In this document: in pieces, positions 7,808 through 30,723 of the stretch | Position numbering within the stretch: the stretch's first letter is position 1 | Layout: each line of letters opens with the position of its first letter | Origin: a virus | Taxonomy: Duplodnaviria > Heunggongvirae > Uroviricota > Caudoviricetes | IMG/VR virus record: IMGVR_UViG_648276647_000020 | Strand: one strand, 5' to 3' | Length of the DNA: 30,723 nucleotides | Made by a program: the position numbers and the translations under genes | Notes under the pieces: model-generated | Database searches by the model: none | Told to the model about the DNA's origin: nothing | The model's input: the letters and a program-made list of their open reading frames with translations, nothing else

Positions 7808-8038
7808 ATGGGTAAAGGCTGGAATGCATCCTTTCATCTTGGCAGACGTGAGCGGCTGCGTCAGGAGGTTTTACACCGTGTCGCCGGTGGGCCACGTCCT
7901 GCGCCCCGCGACTATACCGGTCATGATGGCACCCACGGAAGTTATTACATGAAAGGCTGGCAGTCGGTTGATATGCCGGAAATTCTTCACCACTGCCAAC
8001 GTTATAAGGAAAAATATCATGTACAGAAAATTCAGTGA
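7808..8038 (+). CDS. hypothetical small protein between mor and C
   Basis: 76 aa ORF with SD ggggga upstream. Overlapped by minus-strand ORFs, so coding status is uncertain. Confidence 0.4.
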   Translation: MGKGWNASFHLGRRERLRQEVLHRVAGGPRPAPRDYTGHDGTHGSYYMKGWQSVDMPEILHHCQRYKEKYHVQKIQ

Positions 8039-8150
8039 TGAATGTTTCGGGCCGTCCACGCTGATTAATGCGATAAAAGTGATTGCCCTTGTGGTTCTGA
8101 TAACCATCAGTGCCGTGGTGTATCTTTCTGTCTGTTAACCGGGGGAAAAT

Positions 8151-8573
8151 ATGCAGCATGATTTATTTGAACACGATCCGGCAATTCGCCAGTTAATCGG
8201 ACATATTGATAACATCCCGGCCCCGGAACTGGAATCACGCTGGCCCCGTTCGGTGGTTGATCTGATTGATGTTCTGGAAAACGAACTGAAACGCCAGAAC
8301 GTCAGCAATCCCCGTGAGCTTGCCCGTAAACAGGCCGTTGCCCTGTCCTGTTTTCTGGGCGGGCGGCAGTTTTATATCCCCTGTGGCGATACTATCCTGA
8401 CCGCGTTACGCGACGATTTGCTTTACTGCCAGTTCAATGGTCGTAACATGGAAGAACTGCGTCGCCAGTACCGCCTGTCCCAGCCGCAGATCTACCAGAT
8501 TATTGCCCGCCAGAGAAAGCTGCATACACGGCGTCATCAGCCTGATCTGTTCTCACCTGAAAGCCCAAAATAA
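8151..8573 (+). CDS. C: C-like late-gene transcription activator (Mor/C family)
   Basis: 140 aa; YIPCGDTILTALRDDLLYCQFNGRNMEELRRQYRLSQPQIYQIIAR parallels the Mor HTH region. SD ggggga. Confidence 0.85.
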   Translation: MQHDLFEHDPAIRQLIGHIDNIPAPELESRWPRSVVDLIDVLENELKRQNVSNPRELARKQAVALSCFLGGRQFYIPCGDTILTALRDDLLYCQFNGRNMEELRRQYRLSQPQIYQIIARQRKLHTRRHQPDLFSPESPK

Positions 8574-8594
8574 CCGGCATCCTGCCGGTTATTT
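8568..8594 (+). terminator. hairpin/terminator overlapping the C stop codon
   Basis: ATAACCGGCA / loop TCC / TGCCGGTTAT perfect inverted repeat (8570-8592) followed by ATTT. The U-tract is short, so it may be a weak terminator or processing hairpin. Confidence 0.55.
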
Positions 8595-8664
8595 CCTGTC
8601 ACCATAATCCCGCACCTGTCACCTGATTTTTTAGACTGCCATCAGAGCATTTTTTCAGGGAAGC
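8595..8664 (+). promoter_or_regulatory. candidate C-dependent late promoter upstream of lys
   Basis: Motif CATAATCCCGCACCT (8603-8617) shares CATAA(T/C)CCC and CCCGCACCT with the region upstream of gene I (16783-16807). Possible -10 TAGACT at 8632-8637. Confidence 0.45.
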
Positions 8665-9183
8665 ATGATGGCGGGGATACCAAAAAAACTGAAAGCCGCA
8701 CTGCTGGCGGCAACGATTGCCGGTGGTGGTATGGGTGGTTATCAGGAAATGACCCGTCAGTCTCTGATCCATCTGGAAAATATCGCTTATCTGCCTTACC
8801 GCGATATTGCCGGTGTGCTTACGGTCTGTGTGGGACATACCGGGCCGGATATCGAAATGCGCCGTTACAGCCATGCGGAGTGTATGGCTCTCCTCGCCAG
8901 TGATTTAAAACCGGTTTATGCGGCAATCGATCGTCTTGTCAGGGTGCCGCTGACGCCATATCAGAAAACGGCGCTGGCAACGTTTATTTTCAACACCGGT
9001 GTTACCGCATTCAGTAAATCAACGCTGCTGAAAAAACTCAATGCCGGTGATTACGCCGGAGCGCGTGACCAGATGGCCCGCTGGGTGTTTGCCGCAGGCC
9101 ATAAATGGAAAGGACTGATGAACCGTCGCGAAGTGGAAATGGCAATCTGGAATATCAGGGGGGCGGATGACCTTCGCCAGTAA
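8665..9183 (+). CDS. lys: SAR endolysin, T4-lysozyme-like (GH24) muramidase
   Basis: 172 aa. N-terminal Ala/Gly-rich weakly hydrophobic segment (KKLKAALLAATIAGGGMGG) typical of a signal-anchor-release domain. Catalytic E-x8-D-x5-T spacing (E38, D47, T53). Confidence 0.85.
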   Translation: MMAGIPKKLKAALLAATIAGGGMGGYQEMTRQSLIHLENIAYLPYRDIAGVLTVCVGHTGPDIEMRRYSHAECMALLASDLKPVYAAIDRLVRVPLTPYQKTALATFIFNTGVTAFSKSTLLKKLNAGDYAGARDQMARWVFAAGHKWKGLMNRREVEMAIWNIRGADDLRQ

Positions 9184-9553
9184 AAGTTTACTGCTGGCAG
9201 CCGTGTTTACCGCCGTTCTGTCCGGGGTGTTGTGGCACAGGCTGGACAGCACCCGCCACGATAACCAGACGCTGCGCCGTGAATTACAGACGGAGCAACA
9301 GGCCCGCAACACGGCTGAATGGTTGTTACACGGTCAGGAACAGACGATGCAGGTATTTTCCGCTATCCGTGCCGCAAATCGTGCCGCACGGCTGGCAGAT
9401 GAGACAGAACATCATGATGCAAAAGAAAAAATTACAACCGCCATTACTGGTGACAATTGCAGCACTCGTCCTGTGCCTGCCGTTGCTGCTGACAGGTTGC
9501 GGGAACTCGAAAAACGCACCCGTGCCATCGGTGGTGATCCTGCCCGAAACTGA
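9167..9553 (+). CDS. i-spanin (Rz-like)
   Basis: 128 aa with N-terminal TM helix (LLLAAVFTAVLSGVLW) then charged coiled-coil-like periplasmic domain. Directly after the endolysin, overlapping its stop. Confidence 0.7.
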   Translation: MTFASKSLLLAAVFTAVLSGVLWHRLDSTRHDNQTLRRELQTEQQARNTAEWLLHGQEQTMQVFSAIRAANRAARLADETEHHDAKEKITTAITGDNCSTRPVPAVAADRLRELEKRTRAIGGDPARN

Positions 9554-10205: not shown

Positions 10206-10492
10206 TTAACGATATTCTGACTGAAGACCGTCGTCTGGTCATCCTGCGTTCCCTGATGGACTGCAATAACGAAGCCAACGAATCCATCCTTCAGGACTGT
10301 CTGGATGCATACGGACACAACGTTTCCCGCGATGTGGTTCGCGGCCAGATTGACTGGCTGGCAGAGCAGCAACTGGTCACCGTGGAAAACCTGCGCGGCT
10401 TTTATGTCGTAACGCTGACCTCCCGAGGTCAGGATGTGGCGGAAGGCCGCGCCCGCGTTGCCGGTGTCAAGCGTCCGCGTCCCCGTGCATGA
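10202..10492 (+). CDS. Mu gp26-like protein
   Basis: 96 aa, ATGA overlap with the upstream gene, SD ggag. Function inferred from synteny only. Confidence 0.6.
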   Translation: MINDILTEDRRLVILRSLMDCNNEANESILQDCLDAYGHNVSRDVVRGQIDWLAEQQLVTVENLRGFYVVTLTSRGQDVAEGRARVAGVKRPRPRA

Positions 10493-10503
10493 CAGGAGGC
10501 GTG

Positions 10504-11079
10504 ATGGACAGGAAAACACGGGGCCGGGCTTCAAAAGTGGATTTACTGCCGGAAAACGTACGTAAAACGCTGCATGAAATGCTGCGTGATAAGGCGATCC
10601 CACAGGCCCGCATTCTGGAAGAAATTAACGCACTGATTGAAGACGCAGGCCTGCCGGATGAGATGAAACTCTCCCGTTCCGGTCTGAACCGTTACGCGAC
10701 GAACGTCGAGCAGGTAGGCCATAACCTGCGACAGATGCGTGAAATGACGTCAGCACTGACCGCAGAACTTGGCGACAAGCCAATGGGCGAAACCACAAAG
10801 CTGATTCTGGAAATGGCCCGCAGCCAGCTTTTTAAGGCCATGATGCGGCAAATCGAAAACCCGGAATCTGACGTGGATATTGACCTGCTGAAAAATGCCA
10901 TGCTGGCGGCACAGCGTCTGGAATCCACGGCAATGTCCAGCCACCGGCGCGAGAAAGAAATCCGCCAGGCATTCGCAGAAGAAGCAGCAAACGCCGTCAG
11001 TGAAGAACTGCGCGGGCAGGATGGTATCAGCGAAGAGCTGGAGCAGCGTATCCGTGATGTACTGCTGGGGAAAGCGTAG
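10504..11079 (+). CDS. Mu gp27-like protein (putative small terminase/DNA-binding subunit)
   Basis: Perfect SD AGGAGG 7 nt before ATG 10504; the track's 10489 start overlaps the previous stop. Basic N-terminus, acidic C-terminus. Immediately upstream of the large-terminase region. Confidence 0.65.
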   Translation: MDRKTRGRASKVDLLPENVRKTLHEMLRDKAIPQARILEEINALIEDAGLPDEMKLSRSGLNRYATNVEQVGHNLRQMREMTSALTAELGDKPMGETTKLILEMARSQLFKAMMRQIENPESDVDIDLLKNAMLAAQRLESTAMSSHRREKEIRQAFAEEAANAVSEELRGQDGISEELEQRIRDVLLGKA

Positions 11080-16653: not shown

Positions 16654-16849
16654 ACGGAATCAGGCATAAAATCAGCCGCACAGATTTTTTAAAACGCGCC
16701 ACGGGATTTTTAAACCGGTATTTAACGGTGTATGAATCCCGTTTTATCTTCCTTCCACTTTCTTTCTCCAGTACTCAAATAGCATAACCCCAGATTTTCC
16801 CGCACCTCCCGCAAACTGACTGCTCACAAACCATGATGAGCAGCAGGAC
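16654..16849 (+). promoter_or_regulatory. 196-bp noncoding G-I intergenic region: candidate late promoter and, by position, candidate strong gyrase site
   Basis: Longest noncoding gap in the morphogenesis block. Inverted repeat ACGGGATT (16701-16708) / AATCCCGT (16735-16742). Motifs CATAACCCC (16783-16791) and CCCGCACCT (16799-16807) shared with the lys upstream region. Confidence 0.5.
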
Positions 16850-17935
16850 ATGAAAAAACACGCGATTGGCATTGCCGCACTGAATGCGCTGTCCATTGAC
16901 GATGACGGCTGGTGCCAGCTATTGCCTGCCGGTCATTTCAGTGCCCGTGATGGTCGTCCGTTTGATGTGACAGGCGGTCAGGGGTGGTTCATCGACGGTG
17001 AGATTGCCGGGCGTCTGGTTGAAGGCGTTCGCGCACTCAACCAGGACGTGCTGATTGATTACGAGCATAACCAGCTACGTAAGGACAAAGGATTACCCCC
17101 GGAACAACTCGTCGCGGCTGGCTGGTTTAACGCCGATGAAATGCAGTGGCGTGAAGGTGAAGGATTATTTATCCACCCACGCTGGACGGCGGCGGCACAG
17201 CAGCGCATCGATGACGGCGAATTTGGTTATCTCTCTGCGGTTTTTCCGTATGACACCGCCACCGGTGCGGTGCTGCAAATCCGCCTTGCTGCGCTGACCA
17301 ATGACCCCGGTGCCACCGGCATGAAAAAGCTGACCGCACTGGCGGCAGACCTTCCCGACATCCTTCAACAGGAGAACAAACCCATGAATGAAACGCTGCG
17401 CAAGCTGCTTGCGCGTCTTGGGGTGACGGTCCCCGAAAATGCAGACATCACCGATGAACAGGCCTGCGCGGCCCTGAGTGCGCTTGATGCGCTCGAAACA
17501 GATGCCGGAAAAGTGGCGTCGTTATCCGCCGAACTGGAAAAGGCACAGAAAGCCGCCGTTGACCTGACGAAATACGTCCCGGTGGAAAGCTACAACGCCC
17601 TGCGTGATGAACTGGCACAGGCGACTGCACAAAGCGCCACAGCCAGCCTGAGCGCCGTTCTGGACAAGGCGGAACAGGAAGGCCGCATTTTCAAAAGCGA
17701 ACGTGCCTATCTGGAACAGCTTGGCGGTCAGATTGGCGTGGCGGCACTGTCGGCACAGCTTGAGAAAAAACAGCCCATCGCTGCGTTATCTGCCATGCAG
17801 ACCACCACAGCGAAAATCCCGTCGCAGGAAAAAACGGCGGTGGCGGTGCTGTCTGCTGATGAACAGGCAGCAGTGAAGGCGCTCGGCATTACAGAGGCTG
17901 AGTATCTGAAAATGAAACAGGAACAAGAAAAATGA
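16850..17935 (+). CDS. head maturation protease/scaffold I (Mu gp32-like)
   Basis: 361 aa; Ala/Gln/Glu-rich coiled-coil-like C-terminal half typical of a scaffold domain. Immediately upstream of the major capsid gene. Confidence 0.75.
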   Translation: MKKHAIGIAALNALSIDDDGWCQLLPAGHFSARDGRPFDVTGGQGWFIDGEIAGRLVEGVRALNQDVLIDYEHNQLRKDKGLPPEQLVAAGWFNADEMQWREGEGLFIHPRWTAAAQQRIDDGEFGYLSAVFPYDTATGAVLQIRLAALTNDPGATGMKKLTALAADLPDILQQENKPMNETLRKLLARLGVTVPENADITDEQACAALSALDALETDAGKVASLSAELEKAQKAAVDLTKYVPVESYNALRDELAQATAQSATASLSAVLDKAEQEGRIFKSERAYLEQLGGQIGVAALSAQLEKKQPIAALSAMQTTTAKIPSQEKTAVAVLSADEQAAVKALGITEAEYLKMKQEQEK

Positions 17936-18849
17936 TTGTCACCCCGGCATCCATTAAAGCCCTGATGACCTCCTGGCGTAAGGATTTTCAGGGCGGTCTT
18001 GAAGACGCCCCGTCGCAGTACAGCAAAATTGCAATGGTGGTGAACTCTTCCACCCGCAGTAATACCTATGGCTGGCTGGGTAAATTCCCGACCCTGAAAG
18101 AATGGGTGGGTAAGCGAACCATTCAGCAAATGGAAGCGCATGGCTACTCCATCGCCAATAAAACGTTTGAAGGCACCGTGGGTATTTCCCGTGATGACTT
18201 CGAGGATGACAATCTGGGTATTTATGCGCCGATTTTTCAGGAGATGGGCCGTTCTGCGGCAGTTCAGCCGGATGAGCTGATTTTTAAACTTCTGAAAGAT
18301 GGCTTTACCCAGCCCTGTTATGACGGTCAGAACTTCTTCGACAAGGAGCATCCGGTATATCCGAATGTGGACGGCACGGGCAGCGCGGTTAATACCTCCA
18401 ATATCGTTGAGCAGGACAGCTTCAGCGGTCTGCCATTCTATCTGCTGGACTGCTCCCGCGCAGTCAAACCGCTGATTTTCCAGGAGCGCCGCAAACCGGA
18501 ACTGGTCGCACGTACCCGTATCGATGACGACCACGTTTTTATGGATAACGAGTTCCTGTTTGGTGCCAGCGCCCGCCGTGCTGCCGGTTACGGCTTCTGG
18601 CAGATGGCTGTCGCGGTAAAAGGCGATCTGACGCTGGATAACCTCTGGAAGGGCTGGCAACTGATGCGATCTTTTGAAGGTGATGGCGGTAAGAAGCTGG
18701 GCCTGAAGCCGACGCATATCGTTGTACCGGTCGGGCTGGAAAAAGTCGCAGAGCAACTGCTTAACCGTGAACTGTTCGCGGATGGCAATACCACCGTCTC
18801 CAACGAGATGAAGGGCAAGCTGCAACTGGTTGTCGCTGACTACCTGTAA
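17932..18849 (+). CDS. major capsid protein T (Mu gp34-like)
   Basis: 305 aa, ATGA overlap with I, followed by a strong rho-independent terminator as is typical for major capsid genes. Confidence 0.8.
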   Translation: MIVTPASIKALMTSWRKDFQGGLEDAPSQYSKIAMVVNSSTRSNTYGWLGKFPTLKEWVGKRTIQQMEAHGYSIANKTFEGTVGISRDDFEDDNLGIYAPIFQEMGRSAAVQPDELIFKLLKDGFTQPCYDGQNFFDKEHPVYPNVDGTGSAVNTSNIVEQDSFSGLPFYLLDCSRAVKPLIFQERRKPELVARTRIDDDHVFMDNEFLFGASARRAAGYGFWQMAVAVKGDLTLDNLWKGWQLMRSFEGDGGKKLGLKPTHIVVPVGLEKVAEQLLNRELFADGNTTVSNEMKGKLQLVVADYL

Positions 18850-25001: not shown

Positions 25002-26489
25002 ATGTTTGAAGATGCTTTAAATGCCGTTAATGCTGTCCGGGATAAAACCGGTGGAGGCAGGAAAACAACCGGCAAAGGCACGTTCCGTAACGTGCCGTTT
25101 CTCGTCATCGAGGAGCAAAAACAGGCTGGCGGACGTCGCCTGGTTAAACGCGAGTACCCGTTACGTGATACCGGCGGCGTCAATGACCTGGGGAAAAAGC
25201 TTCGCTCCCGTACATTCAGCGCCTGCATTCTGAACAGCAACGCAGAAACAGCCAGAGATGAAGCGGGTGCTCTGATGGATGCTCTTGATGCTCCGGGTAG
25301 CGGTGAGCTGGTACATCCTGATTTCGGCACTGTGGACGTCATGGTGGATTCATGGGAATGCCGCACTAAAGCGGATGAACTGAATTATTACGCGTTCACC
25401 GTTACCGTTTATCCGTCGTTGCAGGATACTGCCCCGGACGCAGAGACAGACACCAGTGCAGCCGTACCGGCACAGGCTGTTGCTGTAACCGGTTCTCTGG
25501 GTGGTACGCTGTCCTCTGTCTGGCAGACCGTAAAAGATGGCACTGCGGCGGCAACCGCCGTGATGGAAGCTGTAACCGGTGTCATCGATGATATCAGTGA
25601 TGCGGTGGACAATCTGGGGGTTACGCAGACTGTCAGCGGTCTGATGGGATCGCTTTCTGCGATGAAAGGCTCTGTGACCAGCCTGATTAACCAGCCTGCC
25701 ATGCTGGCCTCCTCGCTGATGGGGGCGCTGTCCGGCGTTTCATCGTTATGCGATACCCGGACAGCATTTTCCACATGGAACCGTCTGGCGCAGCGATTCG
25801 AACGTCGCCATGCCGCCACCGCAGGCAGACAGGGGGCAATCACAACCTCGTACAACAGTCCGGTTGCAGAAAAAAATATTGCCACACTGAACTACGTCAT
25901 GCTGGCAGCGGCGCAGACATACCGGGCAGAAGCTGCCAGCCAGGCACTGACTGCGGCACTGGATTTCAGTCGCCGGATGGATAATGCCGCCCGTGCACCT
26001 GTACTGGATGCTCCGTCCACCACAACCGGCACAGCCAGCGGGGCCAGCAGCACATCTGCTACCGTCACACAGGGACAGTTACAGTTAACTGCCATAACCC
26101 CGGACGGCGGCTTTTCACAGGTATCCTTTTCAGACAGTGGTACAGCCACGCCCCCGGTATTTGAAAGTGTGTCCGATATCGGAAAAACAGCCGCCATGCT
26201 GGGGGCAGTGCTGGATACCGTCATTCTGACGGCATCTGAGCAGGGCTTTTCGACAGACAGCGTTCAGCTTACGCAACTGCGTCTGCTGGTTGTTGCCGAC
26301 CTGGAAAAACGCGGGCTGCAACTGGCGGGCAGTGAAACGCACCGCCTGCCGGAGACGATGCCTGCAATGGTGGCTCTGTACCGTTACACAGGAAACAGCC
26401 GGAACTGGCAACGGCTGGCCCGCAGGAACGGTATCAGCAACCCGTTGTTTGTTCCCGGTGGTGTCAGTATTGAGGTGATTAATGAGTAA
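25002..26489 (+). CDS. DNA circularisation protein N (Mu gp43-like)
   Basis: 495 aa with central Ala/Thr/Ser-rich linker; position after the tape measure gene. Confidence 0.7.
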
Positions 26490-27615
26490 TACCGTCACGC
26501 TGCGAACGGATGGCAGGCTTTTTACTGGCTGGACGTCAGTCTCTGTCACCCGCTCCATTGAGTCCGTAGCCGGATATTTTGAGCTGGGGGTGAACGTGCC
26601 ACCGGGCACGGATTTATCCGGGCTGACACCGGGGAAGGCGTTCACGCTCGAAATCGGGGGGCAGATTGTCTGCACCGGTTATATCGATTCACGGCGACGC
26701 CAGATGACCGCTGACAGTATGAAAATCACTGTCGCCGGACGTGACAAAACGGCTGACCTGATTGACTGTGCTGCCGTTTACAGTGGCGGACAGTGGAAAA
26801 ACCGCACACTGGAGCAGATTGCGCGTGACCTGTGCACCCCTTATGACGTTACCGTTCGCTGGGAGCTTTCCGATAAGGAAAGTTCGGCAGCTTTTCCCGG
26901 CTTCACGCTGGACCATTCAGAAACCGTTTATGAGGCGCTGGTGCGTGCCTCCCGCGCACGCGGTGTACTGATGACCAGCAATGCCGCCGGAGAGCTGGTA
27001 TTCAGCCGGGCTGCCAGCACAGCCACTGATGAGCTGGTTCTCGGAGAAAATCTGCTGACACTGGATTTTGAGGAAGACTTCCGCGACCGGTTCAGCGAAT
27101 ACACCGTCAAGGGGTATGCCCGCGCAAACGGTGCTGAGGGTGATGATATTGATGCGAAAAGTATCGTCTCCCGGAAAGGGACCGCCACTGACAGTGATGT
27201 GACCCGTTACAGACCGATGATCATCATTGCCGACAGCAAAATTACGGCGAAGGATGCACAGGCCCGCGCCCTGCGTGAGCAACGCCGCAGACTGGCAAAA
27301 TCCATCACCTTTGAGGCAGACATTGACGGATGGACTCGCAAGGACGGGCAACTCTGGATGCCGAACCTGCTGGTCACTATTGATGCCTCGAAATATGCCA
27401 TCAAAACCACGGAATTACTGGTCAGCAAAGTCAACCTGATACTGAATGACCAGGACGGGCTGAAAACCCGCGTCAGCCTTGCACCACGCGAAGGCTTTCT
27501 GGTGCCGGTTGAAAGCGACCGTAAAAACAAAGGTGACAGTAACGGCGGTATTGATGCGCTGGTTGAAGATTATTATCGCAGACACCCGGAGAAAACGCCG
27601 CCGTGGAAAGAGTAA
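26482..27615 (+). CDS. baseplate/tail protein P (Mu gp44-like)
   Basis: 377 aa, SD gaggtg, overlaps the N 3' end. Confidence 0.7.
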
Positions 27616-28630: not shown

Positions 28631-29713
28631 ATGGCTTATTCACCACCGACATTATCATCGCTGATTGCCCGTACAGAACAGAATATTGAACAGCGCCTGC
28701 CGGGTAGCTGGCCTCAGGCCCGTGAAAAAACGCTGAGTGCCATTGCTTACGCCCAGGCAGGGCTTGCTGCCGGTTGTCACGAGCATATTTCATGGGTTGG
28801 ACGGCAGATTATCCCGTCGACAGCAGATGAAGATGAGTTGCTGGAGCACTGCCGGTTCTGGGGCGTGCGCCGCAAACAGGCGACAGCCGCCAGCGGCCCG
28901 CTGACTGTCACCACATCGGCAGCGACCACCATACCTGCCGGTACACGCTGGCAGCGCGCTGATGGTGTGGTTTACAGCCTGGCTGATGCCATTGTGATTG
29001 ACCGTGCCGGAACGACGGAAATTACCGTTACCGCACTGGCTGCCGGTGAGGCAGGAAATACTGGCGAGAATACCCTTTTAACGTTGATCACCCCGGTTGC
29101 CTGTGTTGTTTCCGATGCCATCACCGTAAAAGGGTTTTCCGGTGGGGCTGATATTGAGAGTGCAGCGGAGCTGCTGTCACGGCTGGAATATCGTGTCCAG
29201 TATCCTCCGTTCGGCGGTAATCAGTTTGATTACGTCCGCTGGGCACGTGAAGTCAGCGGCGTTACCCGTGCCTGGTGTTTTCCGACATGGAAAGGCGGTG
29301 GCACAGTCGGGGTGACGTTTGTTATGGATAACCGGAGCAATATTTTTCCACAACCGGCAGACGTGGAACGCGTGGCGGGTTATATCGCCGGTCATACTGA
29401 CCCGATCACCGGTCTGATTGTCGGACAGCCTGACGGTGTAAATGTCACTGTATTTGCGCCAAAGGCAAAGCCGGTAAATCCACGGATTTATATATCACCG
29501 AAGACAGCCGAACTGAAACAGGCTATTACCCACGCCATTAATACCATGTTTTTTAATGAGGTGACGCCGGGCGGCGCACTTGCCCCCTCCCGTATTATCC
29601 GTGCGGTGGCAGGTGTTACCGGTCTGGATGATTTTGAAGTGCGTTTCCCGACAGAGACCCAGCGTTCGGAGAATACGGAACTGTTAACACCGGGGACAAT
29701 TGAATGGCTGTAA
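28631..29713 (+). CDS. baseplate J-like protein (Mu gp47-like)
   Basis: 360 aa; size and position typical of baseplate wedge proteins. Confidence 0.7.
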   Translation: MAYSPPTLSSLIARTEQNIEQRLPGSWPQAREKTLSAIAYAQAGLAAGCHEHISWVGRQIIPSTADEDELLEHCRFWGVRRKQATAASGPLTVTTSAATTIPAGTRWQRADGVVYSLADAIVIDRAGTTEITVTALAAGEAGNTGENTLLTLITPVACVVSDAITVKGFSGGADIESAAELLSRLEYRVQYPPFGGNQFDYVRWAREVSGVTRAWCFPTWKGGGTVGVTFVMDNRSNIFPQPADVERVAGYIAGHTDPITGLIVGQPDGVNVTVFAPKAKPVNPRIYISPKTAELKQAITHAINTMFFNEVTPGGALAPSRIIRAVAGVTGLDDFEVRFPTETQRSENTELLTPGTIEWL

Positions 29714-30246
29714 CACCCTATCAGACGGCCTTTCTGCAATTACTGCCGTCAGGGCTTGCCTGGAATAAAAGCCCCGACAGCAAATTATCTGCGCTGGCGC
29801 AGGCCATCAGCGACGTGATTGCCACTGCGGCGGATGATGCGCGGCAAATGCTGCGGGAGCGTTTCCCGTCCACATCCCGCTGGTATCTGGGGGAGTGGGA
29901 ATCATTTCTGGGGTTGCCGGACTGTACAAGCGAAAACGGCACCCTGTCCGAACGCCAGCGGGCTGCCGCGAATAAAATGCGTATGACCGGCAATCTGAGT
30001 CGGCGCTTTTATGAATGGCTGGCTGCGCAGTACGGTTTTACCGTCAGGCTGACGGATTCCACAGAAGGCCAGTGGGTTACGCAGGTCAATATTTACGGTA
30101 TTAAAAATTATCGCAACGCAACGGTGCTGGATAATGTTCTGACGCCGTTACGTGTTTATGAATCGGGTGCGCTGGAATGTTTACTGGAGAAATATAAACC
30201 CGCACATCAGATTTATAAATTTGTTTACCATGACGGAGATAACTAA
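29704..30246 (+). CDS. tail protein (Mu gp48/R-like)
   Basis: 180 aa; last intact phage gene before the IS insertion. Its stop TAA overlaps a downstream ATG (30246). Confidence 0.65.
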   Translation: MAVTPYQTAFLQLLPSGLAWNKSPDSKLSALAQAISDVIATAADDARQMLRERFPSTSRWYLGEWESFLGLPDCTSENGTLSERQRAAANKMRMTGNLSRRFYEWLAAQYGFTVRLTDSTEGQWVTQVNIYGIKNYRNATVLDNVLTPLRVYESGALECLLEKYKPAHQIYKFVYHDGDN

Positions 30247-30256
30247 TGTTTTATAT

Positions 30257-30274
30257 GGCTTTGTTGAATAAATC
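30257..30274. repeat. IS903-type 18-bp terminal inverted repeat
   Basis: GGCTTTGTTGAATAAATC; the partner repeat is expected about 1 kb to the right, outside the window. Confidence 0.75.
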
Positions 30275-30312
30275 AGATTTCGGGTAAGTCTCCCCCGTAG
30301 CGGGTTGTGTTT

Positions 30313-30723
30313 TCAGGCAATACGCAGGCTTTCAGGCATACCTGCTTTCGTCATTTTGTTCAGCGCTCGTACCAGGGCCATAGCCTCCGCAACCTGACCA
30401 TCGTAGTCACGCAACGTCAGTGAACCCCCGAACAGCTGTTTTACCCGGTACATCGCCGTTTCCGCTATCGAGCGACGGTTGTAATCTGTTGTCCATTTCC
30501 ACCGCGCATTACTCCCGGTCATTCGCTGACTGGCCACTGCACGGTTACGGTCTGCATATTCACCGGGCCAGTAACCCGCACCTTTTCGGGGAGGAATAAG
30601 CGCGCTGATTTTCTTACGCCGCAGTTCATCGTGACAGAGCCGGGTGTCGTAAGCGCCGTCTGCCAGTGCTGCCCTGATTTTTCTGTGAGTCTGCCGGATA
30701 AGACCCGGGAAGGCTTCTGAGTC
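30313..30723 (-). CDS. IS903-family transposase, C-terminal portion (N-terminus outside window)
   Basis: Minus-strand frame open from the window edge to the stop at 30313-30315; translation ...DRNRAVASQRMTGSNARWKWTTDYNRRSIAETAMYRVKQLFGGSLTLRDYDGQVAEAMALVRALNKMTKAGMPESLRIA. Confidence 0.8.
   Translation of the reverse strand, partial: DSEAFPGLIRQTHRKIRAALADGAYDTRLCHDELRRKKISALIPPRKGAGYWPGEYADRNRAVASQRMTGSNARWKWTTDYNRRSIAETAMYRVKQLFGGSLTLRDYDGQVAEAMALVRALNKMTKAGMPESLRIA

Follow-up and report, generated by a model that had tools for sequence, protein, structure and literature searches.

Upstream of lys and of gene I, in a 30,723-nucleotide stretch of viral DNA (the whole of which is referred to below as the window), lie two short sequences that share an exact 9-mer, CCCGCACCT, and a CATAA(T/C)CCC element. 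The original prediction held that both are binding sites for the late-transcription activator C, with CCCGCACCT as their core, and the question raised by this locus is which part of the shared sequence, if either, C would recognize. Our answer, in which we place high confidence, is that the motifs are parts of the C-activated promoters Plys and PI, that CATAAYCCC is the real box, that CCCGCACCT lies outside the shared recognition sequence, and that PP is a third promoter. This conclusion is based on identity to the mapped promoters of Mu, on a common register, and on the pattern of conservation. C dependence, footprints and start sites are taken from the Mu literature and would carry over to the window by virtue of 97-100% sequence identity; in Mu, start sites of the late promoters and their dependence on C are known from S1 mapping and in-vitro transcription. 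The late-promoter biology was already known (1989-1997), and the match between lys and I is also already in the literature.

The prophage and its late promoters

Judged by its sequence, the window is a Mu/D108-type prophage, approximately 98-99% identical to Mu and D108. Sequence comparison of positions 8000-9500 gave 98-99% identity to Mu, D108, SfMu, and the Yersinia Mu-like phage group, and the gene order is that of Mu (A, B, C, lys, I, N, P, gp48; Table 1). The C protein of the window shares 100% identity with D108 C and 99.3% with Mu C, and matches the Pfam family Mor (PF08765) with E=9e-34. Following gp48 there is an IS903B-like element, whose terminal repeat GGCTTTGTTGAATAAATC begins 11 nt after the ATG of the tail-fibre gene S; S is broken by this insertion, and the prophage is probably defective for tail fibres. 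Because the window ends within this element, the G segment, gin, com/mom and Pmom are outside the view, and Pmom of Mu has no counterpart within the window.

The GenBank entry for Mu (AF083977) annotates four late promoters of 67 bp each, namely Plys, PI, PP (inside N) and Pmom, citing Margolin et al. 1989 (PMID 2522923); Plys and PI are given there as late promoters activated by C. The late promoters of Mu and of the window are orthologous, with the same flanking genes, ATAA box, -10 hexamer and spacing, and the proposal that the sites upstream of lys and I lie in C-activated promoters is borne out by the identity of these regions to the Mu Plys and PI features (65/67 and 67/67). The two substitutions that separate Plys of the window from that of Mu fall in columns 29 and 58 of the 67-mer (~-25 and +5), outside both the box and the -10 hexamer. 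The positions given for the motifs were found to be correct (CATAATCCCGCACCT at 8603-8617, CATAACCCC upstream of I as in Table 1, and CCCGCACCT at 16799-16807), and the distance to the start codons, put at 45-60 nt, is close to the 48-62 nt measured for lys (ATG 8665, or 8668 according to the Mu annotation) and the 43-67 nt measured for I (ATG 16850).

Scanning the window for CATAAYCCC returned three copies, against 0.37 expected (2/100 shuffles reached 3), and these are exactly Plys, PI and PP, the third copy being located in the annotated PP. The position of this copy in a coding region is no argument against a function, since PP is a promoter known to lie in N. A scan for sigma-70 -35/-10 pairs at Plys and PI detected nothing, which fits activator-dependent promoters without a -35 element.

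Some further features of the Plys region were observed. The terminator hairpin of the C (middle) transcript has an annotated equivalent at the corresponding place in Mu (10383-10406) and in D108, and its 3' arm extends into the beginning of the Plys operator, terminator and operator thus being arranged back to back. Either side of the box, Plys of the window carries an exact 9-bp direct repeat, CCTGTCACC (8595-8603 and 8614-8622), whereas in Mu the second copy reads CCTGCCACC. The T at column 29 of Plys is a minority allele, present in 2/21 IMG/VR relatives, and neither it nor the repeat suggests a function.

Table 1. Genes, promoter elements and related features of the window. Positions are those of the window; numbering relative to +1 is explained in the text.
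Feature	Position	Strand	Remarks
Gene A	1-2103		
Gene C, late-transcription activator, Mor/C family, 140 aa	8151-8573	+	Mu annotation
Terminator hairpin of the C (middle) transcript	8568-8594	+	12-bp stem, -16.1 kcal/mol, z=-5.3
Plys, ~-53 to +14	8591-8657	+	65/67 identical to Mu feature; between C and lys
Putative C operator of Plys, 16-bp imperfect dyad TTCCTGTCACCATAAT, -51 to -36	8593-8608	+	probable placement
Conserved box of Plys, CATAATCCC	8603-8611	+	ATAA at -40 to -37, then YCCC
TCCCGCACCT, Plys copy, ~-36 to -27	8608-8617	+	last box bases into -35 position and spacer
-10 hexamer of Plys, TAGACT	8632-8637	+	predicted start site ~8644
Gene lys, SAR endolysin	8665-9183	+	Pfam Phage_lysozyme match
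PI, ~-53 to +14	16771-16837	+	67/67 identical to Mu feature; between G and I
Conserved box of PI, CATAACCCC	16783-16791	+	register as in Plys (-41 to -33)
TCCCGCACCT, PI copy, ~-26 to -17	16798-16807	+	spacer
-10 hexamer of PI, CAAACT	16812-16817	+	predicted start site ~16824
Gene I, capsid maturation protease / scaffold	16850-17935	+	Pfam Mu-like_Pro, E=7e-98
Gene N	25002-26489		
PP, inside gene N	26081-26147	+	67/67 identical to Mu feature
Box of PP, CATAACCCC	26093-26101	+	without CCCGCACCT
-10 hexamer of PP, TATCCT	26122-26127	+	predicted start site ~26134
Gene P	26482-27615		
gp48	29704-30246		
IS903B-like IS5-family element	30258-30723 (window end)		C-terminal part of transposase on minus strand
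Third copy of CCCGCACCT	30575-30583	+	inside IS903B-like element, antisense to transposase codons for PRKGAGYW

Register and conservation of the C operator

All four Mu 67-mers have ATAA in columns 14-17 and the -10 hexamer in columns 42-47 (TAGACT, CAAACT, TATCCT and TAAGAT for Plys, PI, PP and Pmom), and Plys, PI and PP alike have 24 nt between the two. To number positions relative to +1, the -10 register and the published dyad centre were combined with the design of the 92-mer promoter oligonucleotides of PMC4461284, which were meant to extend 20 nt past the start site. These oligonucleotides all end at column 74, which places +1 at column 54, and this assignment reproduces the published centre at -43.5 for the Pmom dyad TTAT...ATAA; the exact numbering in the window is probably accurate to +/-1 nt. 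A reading of the Mu 67-mer as -60 to +7 was rejected because the -10 hexamer would then fall at -19 to -14.

The C operator has been described as a 16-bp imperfect dyad centred at -43.5 (PMC2582627) with the consensus TTAT-N5-6-ATAA (PMC12867686), and the DNase I footprint of C extends from approximately -55 to -30 (PMC2582627). Mutagenesis of Plys, as summarized in PMC2582627, defined -52 to -34 as necessary, and according to the same secondary summary -33 to -27 would be dispensable. In the window the mutation-sensitive region maps to 8592-8610 and the footprint to ~8589-8614, and CATAATCC falls within the functionally defined Plys region. CATAA(T/C)CCC, proposed as an element of the C site, does overlap the promoter-proximal half of the published operator (PMC2582627, PMC12867686): the right half ATAA is invariant in columns 14-17, whereas the left half is imperfect, as the literature describes, and is poor in both Plys and PI, and the limits assigned to the operator here are probable ones. 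TTAT at 8588-8591 (as TTAT-N12-ATAA) was considered as the left half-site and rejected, since Plys from -52 to +8 (beginning at 8592) suffices for C binding and activation.

For the comparison with relatives, the phage collection contained no C homologues at 40-99% identity, and intermediates were drawn from the protein database and its contigs. Through C homologues with 57-81% identity, Mu-like prophages were located in Salmonella, Citrobacter, E. coli and metagenomes; a contig scan with the C alignment yielded only 6 further loci, in prophages of Erwinia, Kluyvera and an unclassified member of the Enterobacteriaceae, while IMG/VR served as the source of additional lys, I and P loci. In every lineage (C 57-81% identical) the arrangement of box, 20 nt and -10 hexamer is present in both the C-lys and the G-I intergenic regions. 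PP in the relatives keeps GTTAA..CCATAACC and the -10 hexamer inside N despite an identity of just 32-38/67 over the 67-mer.

Across 17 non-redundant Mu-type promoters, information content reaches 0.9-1.9 bits in columns 12-21 (ccATAAyCCC), 0.7-1.2 bits in the left half-site (T at column 5 and A at columns 7-8), and 1.9 bits at the A and T of the -10 hexamer, with ~0 bits in columns 22-40. A position weight matrix (PWM) covering the columns of the box and of the -10 hexamer, for which only relatives not belonging to the Mu clade served as training set, was then applied to 61,314 positions on both strands of the window: PI ranked first (33.2 bits), PP second (25.4) and Plys third (19.3), and the next best position scored 9.6 bits. 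It follows from this ranking that Plys, PI and PP are the only late promoters of the window, with no fourth one hidden.

These data also bear on whether the whole observation is a chance similarity without regulatory meaning. Short motifs do recur, and one of the three copies of CCCGCACCT, that in the IS903B-like element, is clearly fortuitous. The CATAAYCCC matches, however, coincide exactly with the three late promoters that are annotated and have been mapped by experiment, and all stand equally far from a -10 hexamer; the box is kept where C is only 57-81% identical, and an independently trained PWM picks it out. For CATAAYCCC a chance origin is refuted by the coincidence with promoters, the conservation and the PWM, and as an account of the whole observation we regard chance as the least probable of the readings weighed here.

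Two observations concern the layout of individual relatives. In L015 (10415-10800) the C-lys intergenic region is 386 bp long, compared with the usual ~100 bp, and carries an extra AT-rich insert upstream of the Plys box; the box itself is otherwise normal (CCATAATCCCG) and the spacing to the -10 hexamer is one nucleotide shorter. In L046, from Erwinia tracheiphila (~10525-10600), at least 7 tandem CCCAAAAG(C) units directly follow the ATG of the lys homologue.

The out-of-register match between Plys and PI

The exact match that was described as a 9-bp core shared by lys and I is present, but its real length is 10 bp, TCCCGCACCT, and it is the sole exact match of 10 bp between Plys and PI. Exact copies of CCCGCACCT number three in the window, where 0.22 would be expected, and 0/100 shuffles reached 3, a post hoc count for a pattern that was chosen from this very sequence. 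Its third copy is found in the IS903B-like element, where it is unrelated to Mu regulation, and not at PP. In PP and Pmom CCCGCACCT is absent, the best matches having 3 and 4 mismatches, respectively. Relative to the promoter, CCCGCACCT occupies columns 19-27 in Plys (8609-8617, -35 to -27) compared with columns 29-37 in PI (-25 to -17), an offset of +10.

The claim that these are C-binding sites therefore holds for their location and for CATAAYCCC and not for CCCGCACCT as the core, a role that we consider highly improbable. An exact match of 9/10 bp between two promoters activated by the same protein is what a common core would produce, and the first six bases of the Plys copy lie within the approximate DNase I footprint of -55 to -30 (PMC2582627). 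Yet, measured from the box, the -10 hexamer or +1, the copy in PI lies 10 bp further downstream than that in Plys, and the sequence is missing from PP and Pmom, both of them C-dependent. The mutation-sensitive region of Plys, -52 to -34 in the summary given in PMC2582627, takes in only TCC of TCCCGCACCT, that is, the first two bases (CC) of CCCGCACCT. The columns concerned carry ~0 bits, no diverged relative has CCCGCACCT, and cryo-EM (bioRxiv 10.1101/2025.05.02.651988) places C upstream of the -35 element, while the PI copy is situated between -35 and -10, in the spacer.

The distribution of the 10-mer is restricted in the same manner. Of 112 fetched loci, 39 contain TCCCGCACCT, all belonging to the Mu clade, and none of the diverged loci among them does. 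The longest exact match between Plys and PI lies in register over the box in every other lineage; only in the Mu clade is it offset by +10. Dinucleotide shuffles of the Plys and PI 67-mers gave a shared substring of 10 bp or more in 27/5000 cases, and in 68/5000 when any of the three promoter pairs was counted; this is nominally rare, but the test is post hoc and takes no account of the locally C/T-rich spacers present in every relative.

Such rarity could be taken to mean that TCCCGCACCT is a second, Mu-clade-specific element beside the C operator, one that tunes promoter strength or open-complex formation through the -35 and spacer region, perhaps at the post-recruitment step stimulated by C, or serves as the site of another factor. 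The offset of 10 bp corresponds to one helical turn and would place both copies on one face of the helix, the 10-mer does not vary in 21 Plys and 15/17 PI copies (IMG/VR loci, the PI copies adjoining an I at least 94% identical), and C acts post-recruitment at lys, I and P, unlike at mom (PMC4461284). The invariance, however, says little, as the Mu-clade copies are ~94-99% identical overall, and in the close relative L092 (I protein 94% identical) the PI 67-mer has just two differences, both within the 10-mer, which reads CCCCGCCCCT, and in L082 (I protein 99% identical) PI lacks the 10-mer altogether. PP, without the element, behaves like Plys and PI in vitro (PMC4461284). The spacers of relatives are C/T-rich but differ from one another, and the match is plausibly a by-product of base composition for which shuffling of the whole 67-mer under-corrects. 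We therefore think a second element unlikely, although somewhat less so than a role for CCCGCACCT as the C-site core.

The PI of L082 (IMGVR_UViG_2531839192_000008, 430-600) is of the type found in L014, whose C is 74% identical, and reads GGATAACCCC...CACACT, which suggests that PI and gene I meet at a mosaic recombination junction.

Two other origins or uses of the 10-mer were considered. A second promoter served by the PI copy at a Plys-like distance was rejected, as the hexamer found there (GCTCAC) is not -10-like. An origin by promoter duplication with 10 bp inserted in PI finds no support, since in relatives the PI spacer can be aligned base for base with that of Mu, from which it differs by substitutions, and since ATAA stands equally far from the -10 hexamer in Plys and PI. 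Most likely, TCCCGCACCT is a Mu-clade-specific match that arose in C/T-rich spacer DNA, and it is probably without function. The lys/I match already published is, by its length and location, almost certainly TCCCGCACCT; the paper that reports it assigns it no function, and none was found here.

Mechanism and operator specificity

Under the preferred explanation, in which the CATAAYCCC box belongs to the C operator, C would be made from the middle transcript and would switch on Plys, PI and PP, which have a -10 hexamer but no usable -35 element. C is expected to bind the imperfect dyad (of the TTAT-N5-6-ATAA type) near -43.5, upstream of and overlapping the -35 position, and to work with sigma-70 RNA polymerase. 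CATAA(T/C)CCC would then consist of the operator half nearer the promoter (ATAA, -40 to -37) and the adjacent YCCC, which is likewise expected to be needed for activation. A cryo-EM structure of C and RNA polymerase on Pmom has C upstream of the -35 element and in contact with the polymerase, bound as a tetramer over about three helical turns (bioRxiv 10.1101/2025.05.02.651988). Once the polymerase has bound at lys, I or P, C brings about a productive open complex, and at mom it also recruits the polymerase (PMC4461284); the beta sliding clamp is also required (PMC12867686, 2026). The middle promoter of Mu, Pm, which belongs to the paralogous Mor/C system, has the same layout, with a dyad at -43.5 overlapping a missing -35 element and an activator of the same family that is a tetramer in cryo-EM, but differs in its operator sequence and in its activator, which is Mor, and is distinct from the element discussed here.

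For annotation, the prophage can be described as keeping three intact C-dependent late promoters along with an intact C gene. Other Mu-like prophages are best scanned with ATAAYCCC (more fully ccATAAyCCC) followed by 20 nt and the -10 hexamer, for which CCCGCACCT is not useful.

Among the relatives, the operator box was seen to change along with the recognition helix of C (L008, L012, L046 and L047, and L013), an anecdotal observation from only three lineage groups. The promoters concerned are found at ~10450-10525 (Plys) and ~18038-18600 (PI) in L008, L012, L046 and L047, and at 10300 and 17878 in L013. Where the helix is of the Mu type, LSQPQIYQII, the box is CCATAAYCCC. With LSQTQIYDII (P112T, Q116D; C 62-67% identical to Mu C) it is a near-palindromic TCAGATACCGGAATC(C/A)CC, and in these lineages Plys and PI of one genome have 19 identical bases of the box. 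With LSQPQIYLII (Q116L), ATAAGAAACCC is found at both promoters. Q116 is listed as a DNA-contacting residue of C (bioRxiv 10.1101/2025.05.02.651988), and such joint change of box and recognition helix could help to predict operator specificity in the Mor/C family.
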